Virus record (IMG/VR): IMGVR_UViG_3300045988_044066
DNA from: a virus
Direction: 5' to 3' (one strand)
Length of the DNA stretch: 64,000 nt
Each line of letters opens with the position of its first letter. Position 1 is the first letter of the stretch. A program made the translations under genes and the position numbers. The notes under the pieces are model-generated. The model had not been told where the DNA came from. It saw only the letters and a list, made by a program, of their open reading frames with translations, and ran no database searches. This document shows, one piece after another, positions 5,479-58,734 of the stretch.

Positions 5479-7047
5479 TTATTGTAACACGATACGACCA
5501 TCTGTAATGTTCTTTCCATCTACAATACTATAATCACAACATGCAAGTGTATTTCCAAAATTCTTGTGAATCCATTCGGAACTTCCAAATAATGAACCAA
5601 CTGACTTATAGGTAAATCTTCTACCATAAGTAGTGGCTGACTGATGTAAATCTCCTTTTACAAAGACTACATTACCAGTGATGCCCTTATTGTCCAAATA
5701 TTCATTGATGAAATTCTCTGTCTTCACGTCAAGAGTTAATGGTAGATTCTTGAACATGTCTTTATTATCTTTACCATGACACATTACATAGGTAGTTTCA
5801 TTAAGAGTAAACTCTCCTATGAACTTGTCAAATACTTGACATTTAACATCAAACTGTTCTAATACAGCAGCTAATGCTAAGTTAGCAGCATAACCAAAAT
5901 CACCATCATGATTGGACTCGCCAACACAATAATAGTACATATTAGTATGCTTTACATTCTCTATCAGAGATTTAACAAAGCTAGTCATTAACTTAATATA
6001 AGTTTGCAATTGCTCCTTATTACTCATGTTTTGAGCTAGTTCGTGACCACCTCTTGTAGTTTGTCCATTATATCCGTCAAGGGAATCTCCAAGATTACAA
6101 ATGACTATATTCTCAAACCCACCACCAATGTAATAAGCTTCAGTATATACTCTCTTTATAATCATGTCAAATCTCTTCTTCATTTCTTCTTCGTTATAAG
6201 GATTCTGATAAATAGATAGAGGAGACACTGTGGCTCCAGTATGAATATCAGACAACCATATGATTAGGTCTTTGCCGTTAGAAATTGTCGGCATACGTCC
6301 CCAGTCATACAGATTATTGAAGTCTAGCCCTTCTATAAGAGCTTTGCCGTCAGCTATTTTAGCTTTCAGTTCGGCATTCTCCATGGCATACTTCTTAAGT
6401 AGTCGCTCGTTATTCTTGATGCGTTCTGCTTCTATGCCTCTTAGGAAGTCATTCTCCTTCTCCCTTAGTTGCATATCTTTAAGCTCGTCAATAGTATTCT
6501 CCTCAATAACATGAGGAGCAAATGGTGCTGCGGCTTTAGTAATATTGAAGACTTTGAGAATCTTCTTAAACTCCTCTAGAGAATATTCAGGGAAGCTACG
6601 ACTTACTTCTCTTTGTGTTATGGATGAACCATAATAAGAGTAAAGTCTATGAATCATATTCATTTCATCCCTAGTAAGACTACCAGTAAATGGTGCTTTG
6701 TCTCTTAGCGGGATAGTGAATTGATACTTAACAATCTTACCTTCATCATTTCTGACCAATGTAATCTTGCCAGTACTAGTTTCCTCCTCTTCAGAAGATG
6801 TCACTTCTTCCGATTTAGAACGACGTATAATACCTCTCTTGCTAACCTTGTCATACAGACTCATTATCATGTCGTAGGATTCCTTGTCGATACTGCCATC
6901 AGCTATATCTTTGTTTACTACCTGTTTCTTTACCCAGAAGTAATTCTGTGGAAGACCTACTTGTTCTGCATATGCATTTAAACTAATGTTCTGTTTTAAA
7001 ACTTCTTGTAAGTGATTGATTAGCTTGGTAATTGTTGTTTCTCTCAT
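5479..7047 (-). CDS. Calcineurin-like metallophosphoesterase (SbcD/Mre11-type nuclease or protein phosphatase) with ~250-aa N-terminal extension
   Basis: Motifs SDIHTG, GDSLDG, GESNHDG and GDLH. Confidence 0.6.
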   Translation of the reverse strand: MRETTITKLINHLQEVLKQNISLNAYAEQVGLPQNYFWVKKQVVNKDIADGSIDKESYDMIMSLYDKVSKRGIIRRSKSEEVTSSEEEETSTGKITLVRNDEGKIVKYQFTIPLRDKAPFTGSLTRDEMNMIHRLYSYYGSSITQREVSRSFPEYSLEEFKKILKVFNITKAAAPFAPHVIEENTIDELKDMQLREKENDFLRGIEAERIKNNERLLKKYAMENAELKAKIADGKALIEGLDFNNLYDWGRMPTISNGKDLIIWLSDIHTGATVSPLSIYQNPYNEEEMKKRFDMIIKRVYTEAYYIGGGFENIVICNLGDSLDGYNGQTTRGGHELAQNMSNKEQLQTYIKLMTSFVKSLIENVKHTNMYYYCVGESNHDGDFGYAANLALAAVLEQFDVKCQVFDKFIGEFTLNETTYVMCHGKDNKDMFKNLPLTLDVKTENFINEYLDNKGITGNVVFVKGDLHQSATTYGRRFTYKSVGSLFGSSEWIHKNFGNTLACCDYSIVDGKNITDGRIVLQ

Positions 7048-10088: not shown

Positions 10089-10310
10089 CTAGAACTCTTC
10101 TATATCGTATATGTCACCAATAATTATCTCTTTGTCTTTAGCCATAGTACCTGCCAGTTCATCATAATCACCTGGAGGGTCTATGTCATAATCTGTAATG
10201 AATAAGTCAATAAACTTATCCTCAGCTTCTGTAAAGCTTCTAGCTCTTACCTTCTCTAGCCATAAATCACCGTCGTCCAGACTATAACAAGGCAGAATAT
10301 AAGTGTTCAT
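10089..10310 (-). CDS. hypothetical protein
   Basis: 73-aa acidic ORF. Confidence 0.4.
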   Translation of the reverse strand: MNTYILPCYSLDDGDLWLEKVRARSFTEAEDKFIDLFITDYDIDPPGDYDELAGTMAKDKEIIIGDIYDIEEF

Positions 10311-31034: not shown

Positions 31035-31068
31035 CTTATAGGATTAGAATTACAGGGTTCAGGGTGAG

Positions 31069-31151
31069 CGGCTGTCGGGAATCGAACCCAATCTATCACT
31101 TGTGCGCATACTAAAATTAGTGATGTGCCCTCCTTTACACTACAACCGCAT
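31069..31151 (-). pseudogene. tRNA-like element with aberrant anticodon region (possible pseudo-tRNA or insertion-bearing tRNA)
   Basis: Acceptor GCGGTTG/CAGCCGC, D-arm GTGT..GCAC and T-arm TTGGG-TTCGATT-CCCGA all fold well. The anticodon stem ATCACT/AGTGAT encloses an 18-nt loop. Confidence 0.3.
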
Positions 31152-50099: not shown

Positions 50100-50182
50100 A
50101 TCCACAGAAGGCGCGTTATCAAAAACATGTAAACTGTACAATGATTAGTGCTGTACACCTTCTTATGTTTCACTAAATCGAG

Positions 50183-50254
50183 AGTGGGCTGACGGAATCG
50201 AACCGTCCTAACTGGTTTTGCGGACCAGCCCCTAAACCTCTCGGGCAAGCCCAC
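50183..50254 (-). tRNA. tRNA-Cys(GCA)
   Basis: Acceptor GTGGGCT/AGCCCAC. Anticodon arm CTGGT-CCGCAAA-ACCAG. T-arm GACGG-TTCGATT-CCGTC. Confidence 0.65.
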
Positions 50255-50394: not shown

Positions 50395-50424
50395 AACTAC
50401 TCTATTCTCACGAACTGAGTAGTT
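50395..50424. repeat. Conserved-loop hairpin, copy C: stem aactactc/gagtagtt, loop tattctcacgaact
   Basis: Same loop core TATTCTC(T/A)CGAAC as hairpins at 53443-53470 and 53718-53755, with an unrelated stem sequence. Confidence 0.5.
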
Positions 50425-51701: not shown

Positions 51702-51704
51702 AAG

Positions 51705-51776
51705 TGCCCCATGTTGGACTCGAACCAACGCCATACAAGTTTAGAATTTGCTCTTCTACCACTGAAGTAATGGGGC
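51705..51776 (-). tRNA. amber-suppressor tRNA-Sup(CTA)
   Basis: 72-nt cloverleaf: GCCCCAT-TA-CTTC-AGTGGTA-GAAG-A-GCAAA-TTCTAAA-CTTGT-ATGGC-GTTGG-TTCGAGT-CCAAC-ATGGGGC-A. Anticodon 5'-CUA-3' reads UAG. Confidence 0.6.
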
Positions 51777-52430: not shown

Positions 52431-52716
52431 TCAGTGAATCAACTCTTTCTCGGAAATACTTCTCTCCACTATACATCTTAGAATAACCACACCAACCTTG
52501 AGTTTCAAGTGATTTCCATTCTTTGATAACTTTAGCTAGATACTCATTCATAGCTTCTCCGATTAGTTTATGCTTTAATATGTAATAAGCTACATACATT
52601 GCATGTAATCTTCCTCTGTTGTAATAAACTGATGAGCAGTCATTAATATTCTTAGCTGCTTTCTGTGCTTTTACTAAATTCGCGATTTCTTGTTTAAATT
52701 GTTTAATTGTTGCCAT
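52378..52716 (-). CDS. hypothetical protein
   Basis: 112-aa ORF. Confidence 0.4.
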   Translation of the reverse strand: MATIKQFKQEIANLVKAQKAAKNINDCSSVYYNRGRLHAMYVAYYILKHKLIGEAMNEYLAKVIKEWKSLETQGWCGYSKMYSGEKYFRERVDSLIDTYSDEEIVCADRPEA

Positions 52717-52805
52717 GATAGTTAATTGTTAATAAGTTAATAAATAAATTGCCTTAATTAATAATCAACTATCTTATGGTGGCTTGTAAGTAATCTACCG
52801 CATAA

Positions 52806-53102
52806 TCATTTCCCTTTAATTTGTTTACACATGTTAATAAACTCATCATCCGATTCACATATAATCGGATTCGTTTCCTTGAGATACATCTCCAGATAGG
52901 CTTCTTTAGACAAATCGTCCACGTCATCCGGATACACACCATGTACATCATATGACATATGAGAACCCCAGCAACTAAGCCAATCAGCATCCTCAAATGT
53001 AGTACATATACACACACTTAACCCAGCATCCTCTAGTTTCTTACGAAGTTCTGGAGTATTCTTCTTAATAAGACAGTGTTCACTCATGGATTTAATACAC
53101 AT
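52806..53102 (-). CDS. hypothetical protein
   Basis: 98-aa ORF. Confidence 0.4.
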   Translation of the reverse strand: MCIKSMSEHCLIKKNTPELRKKLEDAGLSVCICTTFEDADWLSCWGSHMSYDVHGVYPDDVDDLSKEAYLEMYLKETNPIICESDDEFINMCKQIKGK

Positions 53103-53422
53103 AAACCACCTTTCTCGGAATCTCTAAGCACATACTTAATACCTGGAATACCAGGACCTGATACCTTATAAATGGTTAGTTCGTTAATAAATTCATACTG
53201 CACTCTGTTGATTTTATAATCTCCATTAGTAGCAGCAGACTCATTAATTGATGCTTTACTTGTGGTTGCAAATAATGCCAAGAAGGTAAATACTCCACAT
53301 AATCCACCAATAACACCTGCCTTAAATGATGTCTCTTTCATAATCTCATCTATTATTAATAATGAGCGGGATAACAGAATTGAACTGTCATCTTCAGCTT
53401 GGAAGGCTGTTATAATAACCAT
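53084..53422 (-). CDS. hypothetical protein (C-terminal hydrophobic segment)
   Basis: 112-aa ORF. Confidence 0.4.
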   Translation of the reverse strand: MVIITAFQAEDDSSILLSRSLLIIDEIMKETSFKAGVIGGLCGVFTFLALFATTSKASINESAATNGDYKINRVQYEFINELTIYKVSGPGIPGIKYVLRDSEKGGLCVLNP

Positions 53423-53442
53423 TATACGAATCCCGCAGTTTA

Positions 53443-53470
53443 CTTCTACTATTCTCTCGAACCATAGAAG
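53443..53470. repeat. Conserved-loop hairpin, copy A: stem cttcta/tagaag, loop ctattctctcgaacca
   Basis: Loop core TATTCTCTCGAAC shared with copies B and C. The stem differs. Confidence 0.5.
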
Positions 53471-53523
53471 GGTTTGTCGAGTTTGACCTCAACAGATATT
53501 GTATTTAATTATCGCAGTGTGAG

Positions 53524-53607
53524 TGGGCCCGGGAGGACTCGAACCTCCAGTCCAATTAAGGAGTAGATTTACAGTCTACGCGGCTACCAATTACCGGTTA
53601 CGTGCCC
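53524..53607 (-). tRNA. tRNA-Tyr(GTA), class II
   Basis: Acceptor GGGCACG/CGGGCCC (one A-G mismatch). Anticodon arm GTAGA-CTGTAAA-TCTAC. Long variable arm. T-arm GGAGG-TTCGAGT-CCTCC. Confidence 0.6.
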
Positions 53608-53717
53608 GAATCACACAATCCATATTAACTGTGAATTGTGAGTGCAAAGGTAATGAATCTTTCCCACATGTAAAAGTTAATATGTATTAAATACGATAGA
53701 AGTTTGCTCGGTATTAA

Positions 53718-53755
53718 ACTAAGCTCACATATTCTCTCGAACCGATGAGCTTAGT
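53718..53755. repeat. Conserved-loop hairpin, copy B: 10-bp stem actaagctca/tgagcttagt, loop catattctctcgaaccga
   Basis: Loop core TATTCTCTCGAAC. The stem is unrelated to copies A and C. Confidence 0.5.
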
Positions 53756-53857
53756 AGTTATTCAACAATTGCAGATACTTTAACTCGTAATAATGACTAT
53801 GAGTCGAGATAGAAATGACACTGCATATGTTGAAAGAATCATATTAATAAAATGGTG

Positions 53858-53931
53858 TAGAGATAACCAGATTCGAACTGATGTTCTTCTAAAGATTGAC
53901 TTTAGCTGTTCTACCACTGAACTATATCTCT
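53858..53931 (-). tRNA. tRNA-like gene, anticodon CAA (Leu-type) on a class I scaffold; isotype undetermined
   Basis: Acceptor AGAGATA/TATCTCT. D-arm GTTC-AGTGGTA-GAAC. Anticodon arm CTAAA-GTCAATC-TTTAG. T-arm ATCAG-TTCGAAT-CTGGT. Confidence 0.45.
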
Positions 53932-54094
53932 ATCCAGTCCCTATGGAATCATCCAATAAATTCCCACCTAGTGTTACTAGATATGCACAAAGATTACTAT
54001 ACCAAATATGCGCTCTTCTCCATGCATAATGAAATCTATCTTCTATCCAATCAGAACATTAATTCAACTATTAAATAAACGGTGCGCGAAATAC

Positions 54095-55789
54095 TTAGAC
54101 CTTCACAGGCTTCTTCTGCACGCTTGCATTCTTCTTGACAACATCCTTCTCTAGAATCATCATATTAAGCAACTCTTGATTCATAGCATGCTTAAAGATG
54201 TCTCTAGTGGTTTTAGGTACCTGGAACCTCTTCTCTCCAGTAATAAATGAGGATGTTGAATTATTAAGTCCATTTACTAAGAAGCAATTTGACACTCCTG
54301 GAACCAAAGCCACATTAGGTCTTCCCTTATATGCTAAAGGAACTCTCCAAATGATAACTTTGAATGCTCTTACAAATTCCTTACTGAAATTTGCTTTAAG
54401 CAGTCTTTGCTTAAATTCCACGAATGCTTGGTTGTTCAACTTGGTAAAATATGTATGGTTAGTAATTACCACACAACCTCTAGGGAACTCTCCTTCATCC
54501 ACACCATAATCTTCTTTCATTTTACACAGCATTTCTGCTATATTAATAATAGAAGGATTCTGGCATAATGCTTCTTCTTTGTCAGATTTCCATTTCTCAA
54601 TGACATTCTGACCTTTGAACTTACGTAGAACCATGTTATCTTCTAACACGGCATAGGAGTTTTTGAATATTGTAGGAAGTAATTCAGAATGATATAAAGC
54701 ATATGCTTTACCCAAACTGTAAGCAGATGTTTCGCTATTCTCTATCTCACCATTAGCAGAATGACTTATATCTCTTACTACCAACAACGGAGCTACTCTA
54801 TTGCGTTTAGCATTATCAACAAATACATTGAAACTTGCATTAATAGAAGTTTCCATAAATTCTGGAATCTCTTCGGCAATTTTATCCAATCCGTATGGTT
54901 TGAACAGAGTATGTAGAAATCCGCTATTAGAGGGCTTCTTACGGTTCTTCAACCAGTTCTGATACTTCTCTTTAAGACCTTGATGTTTGAGGAATTTAGA
55001 GCCTACTAGCTGTGCCAGTGCCTTTCCAGTAACAGTGTCAAAATCGATTTCCAAGAATTTCTTTTGACTGATTAACTGCTGCCATTGGGCTGCTTTCCCG
55101 CTATTCTTCATCTTCCTATATTTACGATAGGTTGAATAGTCTCCTTCATCCTTAGGTTTACCATAAAGGCCTTCCGCCAAGAATTTGGCTACTGTATTAC
55201 GTGCTTTTGCCTCATCTGTCTTACATGCAACACTGGAACGAACACGAGGAAGATACTTCTTTACTAAATCACATGTCTGACCGTTGGCAAGACCTGCGAA
55301 TATGACTTTCTTGAAGAAGTCCCAATCCAATCTGTGCTTAAAGCCATGGAGTTGAACATCTAAAGCCATCATAGTAATGAAATCTTTCCAGCATCCAGCT
55401 GCTGCAAAATAAGCAATGTTGGCATGGAATGTGGGTTTGTGATAGATTGCCAACCACAACATTCTCATTATACCTTCATTCTTCAAACCTTCTCCTTGCT
55501 GTGTATCAAGTTGTATAACTCCTTCCGGGGTAATTATTCTACATTTACGAGTTATCATTCTCGTATATGCAGTAAACTTAGTACATAGTAATGGATTAGC
55601 TTTCCATAAAGGATACATATCTTTAGCCACTTGCACGTAGGTACGTGGCTGAAGACATTTCTTAAGATTAACAAACTGGTCTATGAATAACTGATTATTA
55701 TCCACAAACTTAGGTTTATTCTCATCCCGCCTTTGACGTGCGGCATTAGGGTAAGGCCTCCTTGGCCTTTGTGCTCCTTTCATTTCCAT
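54095..55789 (-). CDS. large protein with C-terminal vWA-like domain (MIDAS-like DISHS) and N-terminal alpha-helical region; possible Ro60/TROVE (Rsr)-like RNA-binding protein
   Basis: LLVVRDISHSANGE contains a DxSxS MIDAS-like motif. GEGLKNEGIMRMLWLAIY resembles the Ro60 ...EPMLFALAIA segment. 564 aa, next to a tRNA island. Confidence 0.4.
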   Translation of the reverse strand: MEMKGAQRPRRPYPNAARQRRDENKPKFVDNNQLFIDQFVNLKKCLQPRTYVQVAKDMYPLWKANPLLCTKFTAYTRMITRKCRIITPEGVIQLDTQQGEGLKNEGIMRMLWLAIYHKPTFHANIAYFAAAGCWKDFITMMALDVQLHGFKHRLDWDFFKKVIFAGLANGQTCDLVKKYLPRVRSSVACKTDEAKARNTVAKFLAEGLYGKPKDEGDYSTYRKYRKMKNSGKAAQWQQLISQKKFLEIDFDTVTGKALAQLVGSKFLKHQGLKEKYQNWLKNRKKPSNSGFLHTLFKPYGLDKIAEEIPEFMETSINASFNVFVDNAKRNRVAPLLVVRDISHSANGEIENSETSAYSLGKAYALYHSELLPTIFKNSYAVLEDNMVLRKFKGQNVIEKWKSDKEEALCQNPSIINIAEMLCKMKEDYGVDEGEFPRGCVVITNHTYFTKLNNQAFVEFKQRLLKANFSKEFVRAFKVIIWRVPLAYKGRPNVALVPGVSNCFLVNGLNNSTSSFITGEKRFQVPKTTRDIFKHAMNQELLNMMILEKDVVKKNASVQKKPVKV

Positions 55790-56169
55790 CTCTTTGTTTA
55801 AATTTATTGTTATGAGAGTCTTTCTTTATTCTAAACAATAAACAAGCGGCATTACGGCAATCGGACATACGTTAACCCGCTCGCCACTTACAGACCGTAA
55901 TGCACACTTGACCAGGCAGGAAAGAGGTTTGCTTGGTGACCTATCTGCATGCTGATTATATAATGCAGACCGTGTAGATTCTCTCTTACACAATATCTAT
56001 AGTAGATTTGCACTACTGTTTTCTGATGCTTAATCAGGTGAACTCCTACTGTTCGAATAGATACAGGTTTCAACTCTTTGATATAGCCTTTAAGTCATAG
56101 ACATACTCCGGAATATGTCTACTGGTTCTTCAGACCAAGTTTTGCTACCACTATTCGTCAATAGTGGAT

Positions 56170-56865
56170 TTACGGTATTAGATAGTCCACACGAAGGTCT
56201 ACCGTCTCTTCGTTTGCTTCTAACACCACAGTCGTCGAAAGAATATCAGGATTGTCAGCTGTAGTTATCATACTCACAATATCATGTGGGGATTCTAAGT
56301 ATAAATAACCTCTACCGTCCCAAGCTGGAACATATCCACCTCGTAGAATGTTTCGAGACGGAATAGACTTGTAATAATAGTGTGCTGGCCGGTAGTGAGC
56401 GAATGATACGTTAATAGCTGATTGGTGTGTGCCTATGGTAAAACCACCCAGGACTGTTGCTAGTCTCATCACCTTACTAACATATTTTGAATCGCCTACT
56501 ACATCTAGTCTTATGTTCAAGCCTGGATAGTAGAATTTAGCAACTCTCCTGCTTATATCCTTCAACGTTTGAAGAGATTGAAATTCAGCAACATCAACAT
56601 AGTCTTTCTCCGATTCAGAACTACCGAAGACACAATTGATTGGTATTGGCTGATTAGCTTCAATACATTCTTCCAAAATAGTGATTGCTTCGGACGGAAT
56701 AGCTTCATTACCAAGTCTGATTCTCTTAGTCCCATATAAGATATGAGCTATAATCTGACTAAGTGGTAATGATAGTTTCTCCTTAGCAAAGTTGCTTTCC
56801 AAATCATATAGATATTGGCAAATGTGTGCACTGAATGGCGTGTTCCCTTGTACTGTAAACTTCAT
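56170..56865 (-). CDS. hypothetical protein
   Basis: 231-aa ORF. Confidence 0.5.
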   Translation of the reverse strand: MKFTVQGNTPFSAHICQYLYDLESNFAKEKLSLPLSQIIAHILYGTKRIRLGNEAIPSEAITILEECIEANQPIPINCVFGSSESEKDYVDVAEFQSLQTLKDISRRVAKFYYPGLNIRLDVVGDSKYVSKVMRLATVLGGFTIGTHQSAINVSFAHYRPAHYYYKSIPSRNILRGGYVPAWDGRGYLYLESPHDIVSMITTADNPDILSTTVVLEANEETVDLRVDYLIP

Positions 56866-57359
56866 ACTATCTGTTCAACTGTTATTAATTTAGTGATTCT
56901 ATAACCTCTCGATTTCAGGAATTTGATTGCTTCCATTTCAGCCTGTGTAATAGGAATCAGATGTTTGTCTTCTTCCGCTTCTGTAACAGCTTCCATTTCA
57001 GCTTGTGGCTTAGGTTTAGGAGGTGCTACGTAAGTGCCAGCTTTAATAGCCATTCTCTTAGCATATGCATCTCTCTGTATCTTAGCCATTTCTTTCCTGC
57101 TGATAGTTATCAATTCAATGACTCTAGTCTTATACAAAGGGCCATGTTCTTTCCACATAAATCCTTTAGTATAGATAGCACCGTCAGGTTCAATCACTCC
57201 CTGCTTACGCAAAACAGCCATGAAGTTCTCTGGCCTTGGGAAGCCATTCTTCTTTAAATCCCTGACTACATCTGTAATCTTAAAAGGCCCAGGATTCATT
57301 GCCTTTACCGTGTTAAAAATCCGAACGATGTCATCATCGGATATTGACCTCTTTCCCAT
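56862..57359 (-). CDS. hypothetical protein
   Basis: 165-aa ORF. Confidence 0.45.
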   Translation of the reverse strand: MGKRSISDDDIVRIFNTVKAMNPGPFKITDVVRDLKKNGFPRPENFMAVLRKQGVIEPDGAIYTKGFMWKEHGPLYKTRVIELITISRKEMAKIQRDAYAKRMAIKAGTYVAPPKPKPQAEMEAVTEAEEDKHLIPITQAEMEAIKFLKSRGYRITKLITVEQIV

Positions 57360-57385
57360 AATTTCAATAACTTTTAGTGAAACAA

Positions 57386-57667
57386 TTACTCTTTATATAT
57401 TCTAATTCGAGATTTACGCAGATGTACACGCATTCGTTTAATCTCGGACAGAATCCAATCACGTCTGCATTGATGTAACCATGCAATTACATCTTCGTCA
57501 AATAATAATTCTTGACCACAGTAGTATGTGCCACTGTAGTAAGTATCAAGCTTTGGTCTTAATATGTCATGAGGACTATCAGTAACTATGTATTGATAAT
57601 CCTCACCTCTTATTAATTTCAGCTTCTTTGACTCCTTGCGAAGTTTCTTTAATAACCTTGCTTTCAT
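57386..57667 (-). CDS. hypothetical protein
   Basis: 93-aa ORF. Confidence 0.4.
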   Translation of the reverse strand: MKARLLKKLRKESKKLKLIRGEDYQYIVTDSPHDILRPKLDTYYSGTYYCGQELLFDEDVIAWLHQCRRDWILSEIKRMRVHLRKSRIRIYKE

Positions 57668-58034: not shown

Positions 58035-58587
58035 GTTAATAATAGTGGACCTAGGCGGAGTCGAACCGCCGTCCAAACAACCCTCATTAATAAGATTACG
58101 TGTGTCTCTATTTTATTACATCAGCTGTTGAGTTCAGCATGTAGGTAGTTTTACTAGTCTTATCTTGGAACCAGGTAATTAGGCTGCAATAGCCAAACCA
58201 GTACACCAAAAGCTAATTTACAAACTACCAAACTTAAAGGTTCAGAAGCTGACGCTTCCAAACCTGGGCTGACCGAAGTCGCTCTTCCACCACTCCATTT
58301 ACGTTGGAGAACGTTTCTATTTGTAACCCATAGATAGGTAGTGGAGATTTCAGCTTTACTAACCTTTGGCTTTCAAGTTAAGTGGGCTGCTCTATACGCT
58401 TCTTCCCACACCTCTTCTGTTTCTAGGTCTCTCCAATTAACCCGACTTAGAGCTAAATTAATAGATAAGCCAGCAGCTTAGGCTGCCATTCTTACTTCAG
58501 TGTTTCCACTTAAATTGCTGTATCATTATTAAAGAGTTGGTACGAACTCTACACGTCTTACTAACTTGTAATCGCCTGTCAAAACCA
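58035..58587 (-). ncRNA. ssrA: tmRNA (ssrA-like); unusually long at ~553 nt; predicted tag ...GNTEVRMAA*
   Basis: 5' end GGGCCUAGAUUUGGUUUUGACAGGCG resembles the consensus GGGGCUGAUUCUGGAUUCGACGGG. 3' end ...UUUGGAC-GGCGG-UUCGACU-CCGCC-UAGGUCC-A. Acceptor GGGCCUA/UAGGUCC. In-frame AUG-GCA-GCC-UAA ends ~120 nt from the 5' end. Confidence 0.55.
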
Positions 58588-58734
58588 AATCTAGGCCCAT
58601 AGAACGGCATGATTATCCTCTCATGCCAGGAGGTCTCTCAAACCTGAACAAAAAAGCTATCAGTATCTTCCTGTGCTACATTGAGTAGCGTACCCATTAC
58701 AGACTTAATAGCCTAGGAGTTATTTTTATTCCAT

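Follow-up and report, generated by a model that had tools for sequence, protein, structure and literature searches.

A predicted Ro60-like DUF2828/DUF7788 protein beside a putative discontinuous hammerhead ribozyme in a phage tRNA island

The locus described here lies in a 64,000-nucleotide stretch of viral DNA (IMG/VR record IMGVR_UViG_3300045988_044066; the whole stretch is called the window below). On its minus strand, a gene for a protein of 564 amino acids (aa) is preceded by a spacer of 380 nucleotides (nt), at 55790-56169. Taken as a whole, the locus probably pairs a protein of the DUF2828/DUF7788 family that has a Ro60-like predicted fold with an adjacent discontinuous hammerhead that is putatively self-cleaving. 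On comparative sequence grounds, the spacer RNA is most likely a type I hammerhead, and the orphan Rfam family RAGATH-34 corresponds to the 5' two-thirds of it. An earlier sequence-only reading of the same DNA had proposed a Ro60/Rsr-like protein next to a candidate Y-RNA locus; it had also described the spacer as free of open reading frames (ORFs). The spacer indeed holds only mechanical ORFs, of at most 61 aa, and it is conserved as RNA.

The spacer contains a match to RAGATH-34 (RF03103) that is far beyond chance, scoring 120.9 bits against a gathering score of 60.7 and covering model positions 1-107 of 107. Two perfect hairpins that the sequence-only reading had picked out, ccactatt/aatagtgg and tagacata/tatgtcta, are real, and form helices P1 and P4 of this match, respectively. 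In the order of transcription, the RAGATH-34 part comprises the 5' strand of stem I, the motif CUGANGA, a stem II with a loop that pairs with the P2 strand, the motif GAAA, and the 5' strand of stem III. In each member of the family, the 5-7 nt before CUGANGA are complementary to the nucleotides that follow a downstream RAGGUH. The stem I pairings are of several types, namely CUUGGU/ACCAAG (the window), CUUGGU/AUCAAG, AUGGU/ACCAU, CUGAC/GUCAG, AACAAU/AUUGUU and AUAUAU/AUAUAU. It is the combination of CUGANGA, GAAA, an A15.1-U16.1 pair, a C15.2-G16.2 pair, H17 and the stem I complementarity that argues for a type I hammerhead; the naming of its blocks, in the order C-G-S, follows PMC10085705. 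Stem III is interrupted by an insert, which amounts to 125 nt in the window (a cloverleaf and two hairpins) and to 50-245 nt across the family. Cleavage is predicted after C55938, which lies 148 nt upstream of the ATG at 55789. Table 1 lists the parts.

Table 1. Positions of the ribozyme parts, the leader, the protein gene and the nearest downstream tRNA genes in the window.
Feature	Position	Strand	Remarks
Whole discontinuous type I hammerhead (proposed)	55932..56167	-	helix P1 through stem I 3' strand
RAGATH-34 match, 5' ('enzyme') part	56060..56167	-	Rfam RF03103
P1	56167-56148	-	second hairpin of the sequence-only reading
P2 pseudoknot, 5' strand UAGC	56147-56144	-	pairs with GCUA 56087-56084 in loop II
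Stem I, 5' strand CUUGGU	56139-56134	-	
Core C3-U4-G5-A6-N7-G8-A9 (CUGAAGA)	56133-56127	-	
Insert after A9	56126-56098	-	ACCAG (56126-56122) and P4 hairpin (56121-56098)
Stem II, GACUU/GAGUU	56096-56092 with 56076-56072	-	
Core G12-A13-A14-A15.1 (GAAA)	56071-56068	-	
Stem III, 5' strand	56068-56064 with 55943-55939	-	CCUG after GAAA
tRNA-like cloverleaf in stem III	56063-55993	-	Rfam tRNA 42.6 bits; 7-bp acceptor stem; T loop UGCAAAU
GAGAA-capped insert hairpin	55991-55972	-	
Second insert hairpin	55969-55944	-	UCUGCAU...AUGCAGA
Stem III, 3' strand UAGGU	55943-55939	-	U16.1 at 55939
C17	55938	-	predicted cleavage 55938/55937
Stem I, 3' strand ACCAAG	55937-55932	-	
5' leader of predicted cleaved mRNA	55936..55849	-	
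Leader hairpin	55936-55912	-	invariant loop AACCUCUUUCCU; overlaps stem I 3' strand
Long covarying leader hairpin, then U-rich tract	55903-55849	-	
564-aa DUF2828/DUF7788-family protein	54095..55789	-	N-terminal helical domain and C-terminal vWA; MIDAS D340, S342, S344 (predicted fold)
tRNA-Leu(CAA)	53857-53931	-	downstream of the 564-aa ORF; context, outside the ribozyme
tRNA-Tyr	53523-53607	-	downstream of the 564-aa ORF; context, outside the ribozyme
tRNA-Gly	53364-53436	-	downstream of the 564-aa ORF; context, outside the ribozyme

The helices were assessed in an anchored alignment of 21 distinct sequences. All positions of the hammerhead core are invariant in this set except N7. Paired combinations fill 92.5% of the cells, as against 29-43% when the partner strands are slid. 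In stem I, 6/6 pairs have changed on both sides; in the P2 pseudoknot, 4/5 have done so. Pseudoknots between stem I and stem II are also a feature of described phage hammerheads, for which a role in cutting long phage transcripts has been put forward (Perreault et al. 2011, PMC3088659). Minimum-free-energy folds of the shortest natural members reproduce both P2 and stem III with its two inserted hairpins.

A metagenome scan provided an independent set of 117 loci with 39 distinct sequences. It contributed new stem I types (ACACAU/AUGUGU, ACCGAU/AUCGGU, AAUACU/AGUAUU and AAUAAU/AUUAUU), and within stem III the 15.3-16.3 pair covaries between C-G, U-A and A-U. Among the distinct sequences, N7 is U in 28 cases, A in 5, G in 3 and C in 3. 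N17 is C in 21, U in 12 and A in 5; the single G stems from a truncated locus, and position 17 is never G at any credible site. A scan of bacterial genome contigs served as the negative control, and 30 of its 31 matches were due to chance. The best scores of these 30 were 2-7, and they lacked the RAGGUH context; real members mostly score 8-12.

Several observations count against a hammerhead. The Rfam hammerhead models gave no match in the window, a failed test; the miss is expected, because the inserts would prevent detection. Stem II is without support from covariation: together with the first four pairs of stem III it is invariant, so that covariation neither supports nor contradicts this helix. 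All members have an insert of 1-86 nt separating A9 from stem II (position 10.1), the other five junctions being canonical, and the pair at 10.1-11.1 is an atypical G-U wobble. Insertions into the core often lower hammerhead activity (PMC3088659). Lastly, the 3' sites (the S block) were picked by their sequence context, so that a degree of selection bias is conceivable. An artefact is made less likely by the control with slid partners, the control for chance matches and the independent metagenome set.

The obligatory insert after A9, the G-U pair and the very long insert in stem III would also suit an RNA that is derived from a hammerhead and catalytically dead. Such an RNA could be a stable small RNA (sRNA), which is how Rfam files RAGATH-34, or a cis-acting leader that is not cleaved; further conserved hairpins are found in the leader, and a CU-rich loop could pair with purine-rich sequences. 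Nevertheless, every catalytic nucleotide is strictly conserved across about 60 distinct sequences, with free variation at N7 alone and with G excluded at position 17. This pattern is hard to explain without catalysis, and a dead RNA is therefore considered unlikely.

If the spacer RNA works as a hammerhead, the ribozyme would fold only once the whole insert has been transcribed, and the strand would then be cut between C55938 and A55937. Cleavage would part the message of the upstream ORFs from the Ro60-like message. The latter would be left with a 5'-OH end and could refold into a terminal hairpin, which reuses the 3' strand of stem I. An additional helix, P3 of the Rfam model (UUGGU...ACCAG), forms between the 5' strand of stem I and the first nucleotides of the insert after A9, and a comparison of the two main clades shows it to covary. 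Because it occupies a strand of stem I, the two helices are in competition; a similar complementarity to the end of the stem I strand is seen in the 1-3 nt that follow A9 in minimal members. The local helix may thus delay or gate cleavage, and the competition could act as a kinetic gate, as judged from few independent lineages.

As regards the protein, the ORF is present as first described, and so are both of the motifs that had suggested Ro60. The DxSxS motif, resembling a metal ion-dependent adhesion site (MIDAS; VVRDISHSANGE), aligns to the Ro60 MIDAS sequence DVSASM, and the segment MRMLWLAIY falls in the most conserved N-terminal block, where there is a weak DUF2828 match (aa 97-146). Profile comparisons assign the protein to the DUF2828/DUF7788 family and not to the TROVE family. 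The window protein itself has a sub-threshold Pfam match to DUF2828 (E 0.011) and matches phrog_850, 'RNA-binding protein', in PHROGs (E 1.4e-11). The search found 601 homologues; those with 40-45% identity lie above threshold for both DUF2828 and DUF7788 (up to 45.6 bits for DUF7788, 34.9 bits for DUF2828), with a faint vWA_Ro60 signal. In a set of 36 homologues, DUF2828 (PF11443) matches 35/36 and DUF7788 (PF25043) 30/36, and R339, D340, S342 and S344 do not vary. In GenBank, the phage homologues carry the annotation DUF2828. A profile search of 1.8 billion representatives indicates a family of about 2,875 clusters at 50% identity; the best 150 of the matches, which were listed, are too close to show a link to TROVE.

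The Ro60/Rsr assignment of the sequence-only reading is thus supported as a resemblance in predicted fold, and not as TROVE membership. The TROVE model (PF05731) matched neither the window protein, at E<=10, nor the 36 homologues, at E<=1. The family profile retrieved no Ro60 chain from the PDB sequences, and phmmer and hmmsearch against these sequences returned nothing. With hhalign, only 56 columns in the MIDAS region aligned to human Ro60, at 41% probability. These results, which leave the protein unlinked to TROVE at the sequence level, count against the Ro60-like reading. The AlphaFold model has a predicted local distance difference test score (pLDDT) of 78.9 and a predicted template modelling score (pTM) of 0.53, and Foldseek matches it best to Ro60, along the full length (E 1.2e-5, probability 1.0, TM ~0.3). 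The modest pTM and TM values also tell against the fold assignment, and because of them the packing of the domains is uncertain. A C-terminal vWA domain with a MIDAS motif is present in the protein; the helical domain before it is predicted only. In BFVD, the nearest viral models are DUF7788/DUF2828 proteins of phages and giant viruses, and the mycobacteriophage-type 'Ro-like RNA binding protein' ranks 16th among viral models. Overall, the modelling supports a resemblance to Ro60 at the level of the fold only.

Genes of this family are often found near tRNA genes. There are tRNAs within 3 kb in 20/27 distant viral loci, and often a genuine tRNA lies upstream of the family gene, at a distance of 100-600 nt. 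The DUF2828 'RNA-binding protein' gp247 of Bacillus phage Tsamsa comes directly after a 19-tRNA array. This conserved neighbourhood suggests a role tied to virus-encoded tRNAs; the protein may be an RNA-binding or RNA-quality-control factor for tRNA-type RNAs.

Two phage loci with homologues contain other non-coding elements. In Tsamsa (L202, 2332-2943), a 612-nt non-coding gap separates the tRNA array from gp247. It contains a sigma-70 promoter close to the consensus (TTGACA-17-TATAAT, ~2364-2392), after which the sequence is richer in GC for about 530 nt. The gap gave no Rfam match, and no hammerhead, RAGATH-34 or Y RNA was detected in it; it could be a leader or a non-coding RNA of unknown kind. 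In Leptolyngbya phage Lbo-JY46 (L201), three repeated short hairpin elements (5587-5866) lie just downstream of a 35%-identical homologue and match Dicty_Class_I_RNA weakly (best 39.3 bits, threshold 41.5). No ribozyme or Y RNA was detected at this locus.

How closely the RNA and the protein belong together was examined with our own covariance model of RAGATH-34. In 33/36 viral loci with at least 43% protein identity, the element lies 250-550 nt upstream of the gene. With filters off, it was found neither within 3 kb of 12 more distant homologues (34-43% identity) nor near L046. A pattern scan of viral contigs revealed a related core in 10 further contigs; the genes downstream of it are unrelated, and no gene of the protein family is present in the locus. 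These contigs share the 3' block, GAGAAAAUC hairpin ... UUAAAAGGUCAUUGUU, 50-245 nt downstream. The metagenome loci can be divided by the insert after A9, which measures at least 19 nt in the RAGATH-34 type. The protein gene follows within 1.2 kb in 71/75 loci of this type and in 2/15 of the minimal type, of which the other 13/15 are followed by unrelated genes. The contrast implies that the tight pairing belongs to a single phage lineage, as would be expected of inherited synteny; as wholes, the ribozyme family and the protein family are independent of each other. Since the same core precedes unrelated genes, it is better seen as a transcript-processing element than as an obligate partner of the Ro60-like protein, and transcript processing is also the role suggested for phage hammerheads (PMC3088659; PMC6765202). 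The ribozyme of the window is read as such an element, positioned where an ORF block meets the Ro60-like/tRNA block.

A closer relationship between the two can be envisaged in two ways, and is doubtful in both. In the first, cleavage would be contingent on a factor that recognises the tRNA shape, through the cloverleaf and the anti-stem-I helix P3. RNase P or a modification enzyme could be this factor, and so could the Ro60-like protein itself, in the role of an RNA chaperone; a feedback loop on the Ro60-like mRNA would result. In the second, the excised 5' fragment, consisting of the RAGATH-34 domain and the tRNA-like domain and ending in a 2',3'-cyclic phosphate, would be a Y-RNA-like ligand of the protein. 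Hammerhead products have 2',3'-cyclic phosphate and 5'-OH ends, the same as those joined by RtcB ligase. In bacteria, the RtcB gene adjoins rsr (see also PMC7824862). A functional tie is attractive for these reasons, and speculative here. No RNA repair genes (RtcB, ligase, kinase) were found among 20 larger window proteins. If true, either scheme would tie a self-cleaving ribozyme to a dedicated protein partner.

Developed in full, the Y-RNA reading would make the spacer encode a Y-RNA- or YrlA-like RNA with a tRNA-like module; as the bound partner of the Ro60-like protein, this RNA would tether it to another factor, as in Rsr-Y RNA-PNPase. YrlA RNAs do have tRNA-like domains and lie beside rsr (PMC4201824); a cloverleaf is present here, the predicted protein fold is Ro60-like, and RNA and gene are adjacent and on the same strand in the 33 viral and 71 metagenome loci counted above. 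The RNA itself does not bear this out. Y_RNA and YrlA models gave no match at E<=10 in 52500-57500 or 55700-56300, and none at E<=0.05 in the whole window. The 5' and 3' ends do not pair into a terminal stem, and GACGAAUAG in the P1 loop misfits GNCGAAN0-1G and is not conserved among relatives. Instead, the invariant nucleotides are exactly those of a hammerhead core, which also accounts for the helices. Furthermore, the core stands before unrelated genes in the 10 viral contigs and the 13 minimal-type loci, protein homologues at 34-43% identity are without the RNA, and the tRNA-like module is shortened or missing in several close relatives, as described next. A Y-RNA locus is thus improbable.

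The cloverleaf had escaped the sequence-only reading, which expected a tRNA-like module beside the gene. Such a module does exist, and it turns out to be a variable insert in stem III of the ribozyme. It is complete in the window and in L019 (52.1 bits), and shortened or absent in the close relatives L013, L016, L032, L041 and L065; a plain hairpin replaces it in L013, L016 and L032, and a minihelix in L041. In L036 and L042 its acceptor pairing is broken. The insert is, therefore, a non-constant part of the ribozyme. In distant relatives the corresponding position is taken by real tRNAs, so it is possibly a decayed tRNA that was caught in stem III. That it is a working tRNA gene, with the halves of the ribozyme serving its processing, is very improbable in spite of these tRNAs, the Rfam scores and the 7-bp acceptor stem: there is no ARAGORN call, the T loop has G at position 55, the anticodon would be AAG (Leu) and yet the variable arm is not long, relatives have anticodon arms of differing length or none at all, and the cleavage site lies 55 nt past the 3' end.

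Other readings of the RNA were dropped. These are CUGANGA as the anticodon-like loop of hairpin P3; a C/D box or k-turn; a leader of T-box-like type or one that sequesters the ribosome-binding site; a hammerhead built on the first GAAA (CACGAAA), where there is no room for two stems; and a repeated promoter-proximal element, which has a single copy in the window.

The window is part of a large phage genome. It carries 29 minus-strand tRNA genes, one of them a CUA suppressor, as well as a transfer-messenger RNA (tmRNA) and genes for replication and nucleotide metabolism. The Ro60-like ORF and the RNA element both lie inside this tRNA/tmRNA island. Near-identical and related loci occur in IMG/VR contigs and in human-gut metagenome contigs of ~175-190 kb. 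The tmRNA (58043-58598, minus strand; Rfam RF00023, 83.7 bits, no ARAGORN call) extends over 556 nt, compared with 374 positions in the model, and is kept upstream of the Ro60-like gene in many related loci.

Downstream of the gene, the tRNA-Tyr named in the sequence-only reading is present, and the 'tRNA-like gene' is an ordinary tRNA. The conserved-loop hairpins reported there also exist, with the apex GGUUCGAGAGAAU at 53731-53743 and 53451-53463; GNRA-capped hairpins lie between the downstream tRNAs, within 53364..53931 on the minus strand. They are long hairpins with a common apex, (G)GUUCG(A/U)GAGAAU, and a GNRA-type cap. These two precede tRNA-Tyr and tRNA-Gly, one of them stopping 7 nt before tRNA-Gly, and a third, at 50404-50416 (minus strand), precedes tRNA-Cys (50182-50254). 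The sequence GAGAGAAU occurs six times in the window, always on the transcribed strand, and one copy caps a hairpin in the stem III insert of the ribozyme.

Elsewhere in the tRNA island, the suppressor tRNA (51704-51776, minus strand), which has the anticodon CUA and which ARAGORN labels Pyl, is a hint that UAG is recoded in part of this genome. An adenylosuccinate-synthetase-like gene (38252-39319, minus strand) matches phrog_1211 (PurZ-type, E 5e-45), and is a possible marker of a 2-aminoadenine (Z) genome. Rfam adds a tRNA match at 31067-31149 (minus strand, 38.5 bits) that has no ARAGORN call. At 43715-43818, ARAGORN makes overlapping calls on opposite strands, tRNA-Arg(+) and tRNA-Ser(-), of which the plus-strand call is probably spurious.

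If the assignment is correct, RAGATH-34 would gain a proposed mechanism, hammerhead self-cleavage. Natural hammerheads would then tolerate a multi-helix insert of 50-245 nt in stem III, and even a hairpin in a core junction. As such inserts cause covariance-model searches to miss these hammerheads, phage genomes may hide more of them. The purpose of bacterial and phage ribozymes is still unresolved (PMC6765202), and the present locus would offer a concrete case, with a predicted cleavage site a short distance upstream of a gene at the border of an ORF block and a tRNA island. For DUF2828/DUF7788, the working hypothesis would be a Ro60-like RNA-binding protein tied to virus-encoded tRNA sets. 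No paper naming RAGATH-34 was found in the literature searched; its hammerhead nature may already have been noted elsewhere.

Among known systems, the protein is closest to the DUF2828/DUF7788 proteins of large phages and giant viruses (e.g. Tsamsa gp247). It belongs to the same family by hidden Markov model and fold, and differs from other members in that it falls below the Pfam thresholds. Ro60/Rsr with its Y RNA or YrlA (Chen et al. 2014, PMC4201824) is likewise a two-domain protein with a structured RNA that contains a tRNA-like module and adjoins the gene, and Ro60 also occurs in phages, as in phage phiLo (PMC12135203). In contrast, the present locus lacks the TROVE signature and the features of Y RNAs, and the coupling between RNA and protein is loose.

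Other ribozyme-like matches were seen in related loci. L018 (7015-7078) and L019 (7394-7457) contain HDV-F-prausnitzii-like matches between tRNA genes (37-38 bits against a gathering score of 44). They recall the theta ribozymes known from gut phages, where they adjoin tRNAs (PMC10879173); at E<=0.05, the search of the window gave nothing of the kind. In L088, a weak twister-P1 match (10203-10289) with 40.3 bits, below the gathering score of 67.2, is located ~700 nt upstream of a member of the minimal type, which fits the known clustering of self-cleaving ribozymes.

With respect to Rfam, the window element is a full-length member of RAGATH-34 at twice the gathering score. The Rfam model, filed as an sRNA, stops at GAAACCUguauc and shows CUGANGA as a hairpin loop, that of P3; it includes neither the 3' partner strand nor the hammerhead reading, both of which are proposed here. 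The discontinuous hammerhead in the 3' untranslated regions of mammalian Clec2 (Martick et al. 2008; PMC6155905) shares the split into enzyme and substrate strands with a long mRNA insert between them. It is of type III, with 150-1500 nt inserted in helix I, whereas the present one would be a type I hammerhead of phages with its insert in stem III. The closest counterparts are the type I hammerheads of phages and prophages (Perreault et al. 2011, PMC3088659). The family described here departs from these by its insert in stem III (50-245 nt; 125 nt with the tRNA-like cloverleaf in the window), by its 1-86 nt between A9 and stem II, by its G-U pair at 10.1-11.1, and in that the Rfam hammerhead models miss its members. 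Both have the same block order (CUGANGA, GAAA, cleavage site), the same open stem I with a pseudoknot between the stem I side and loop II, and the same intergenic place between phage genes, which fits the cutting of polycistronic transcripts.

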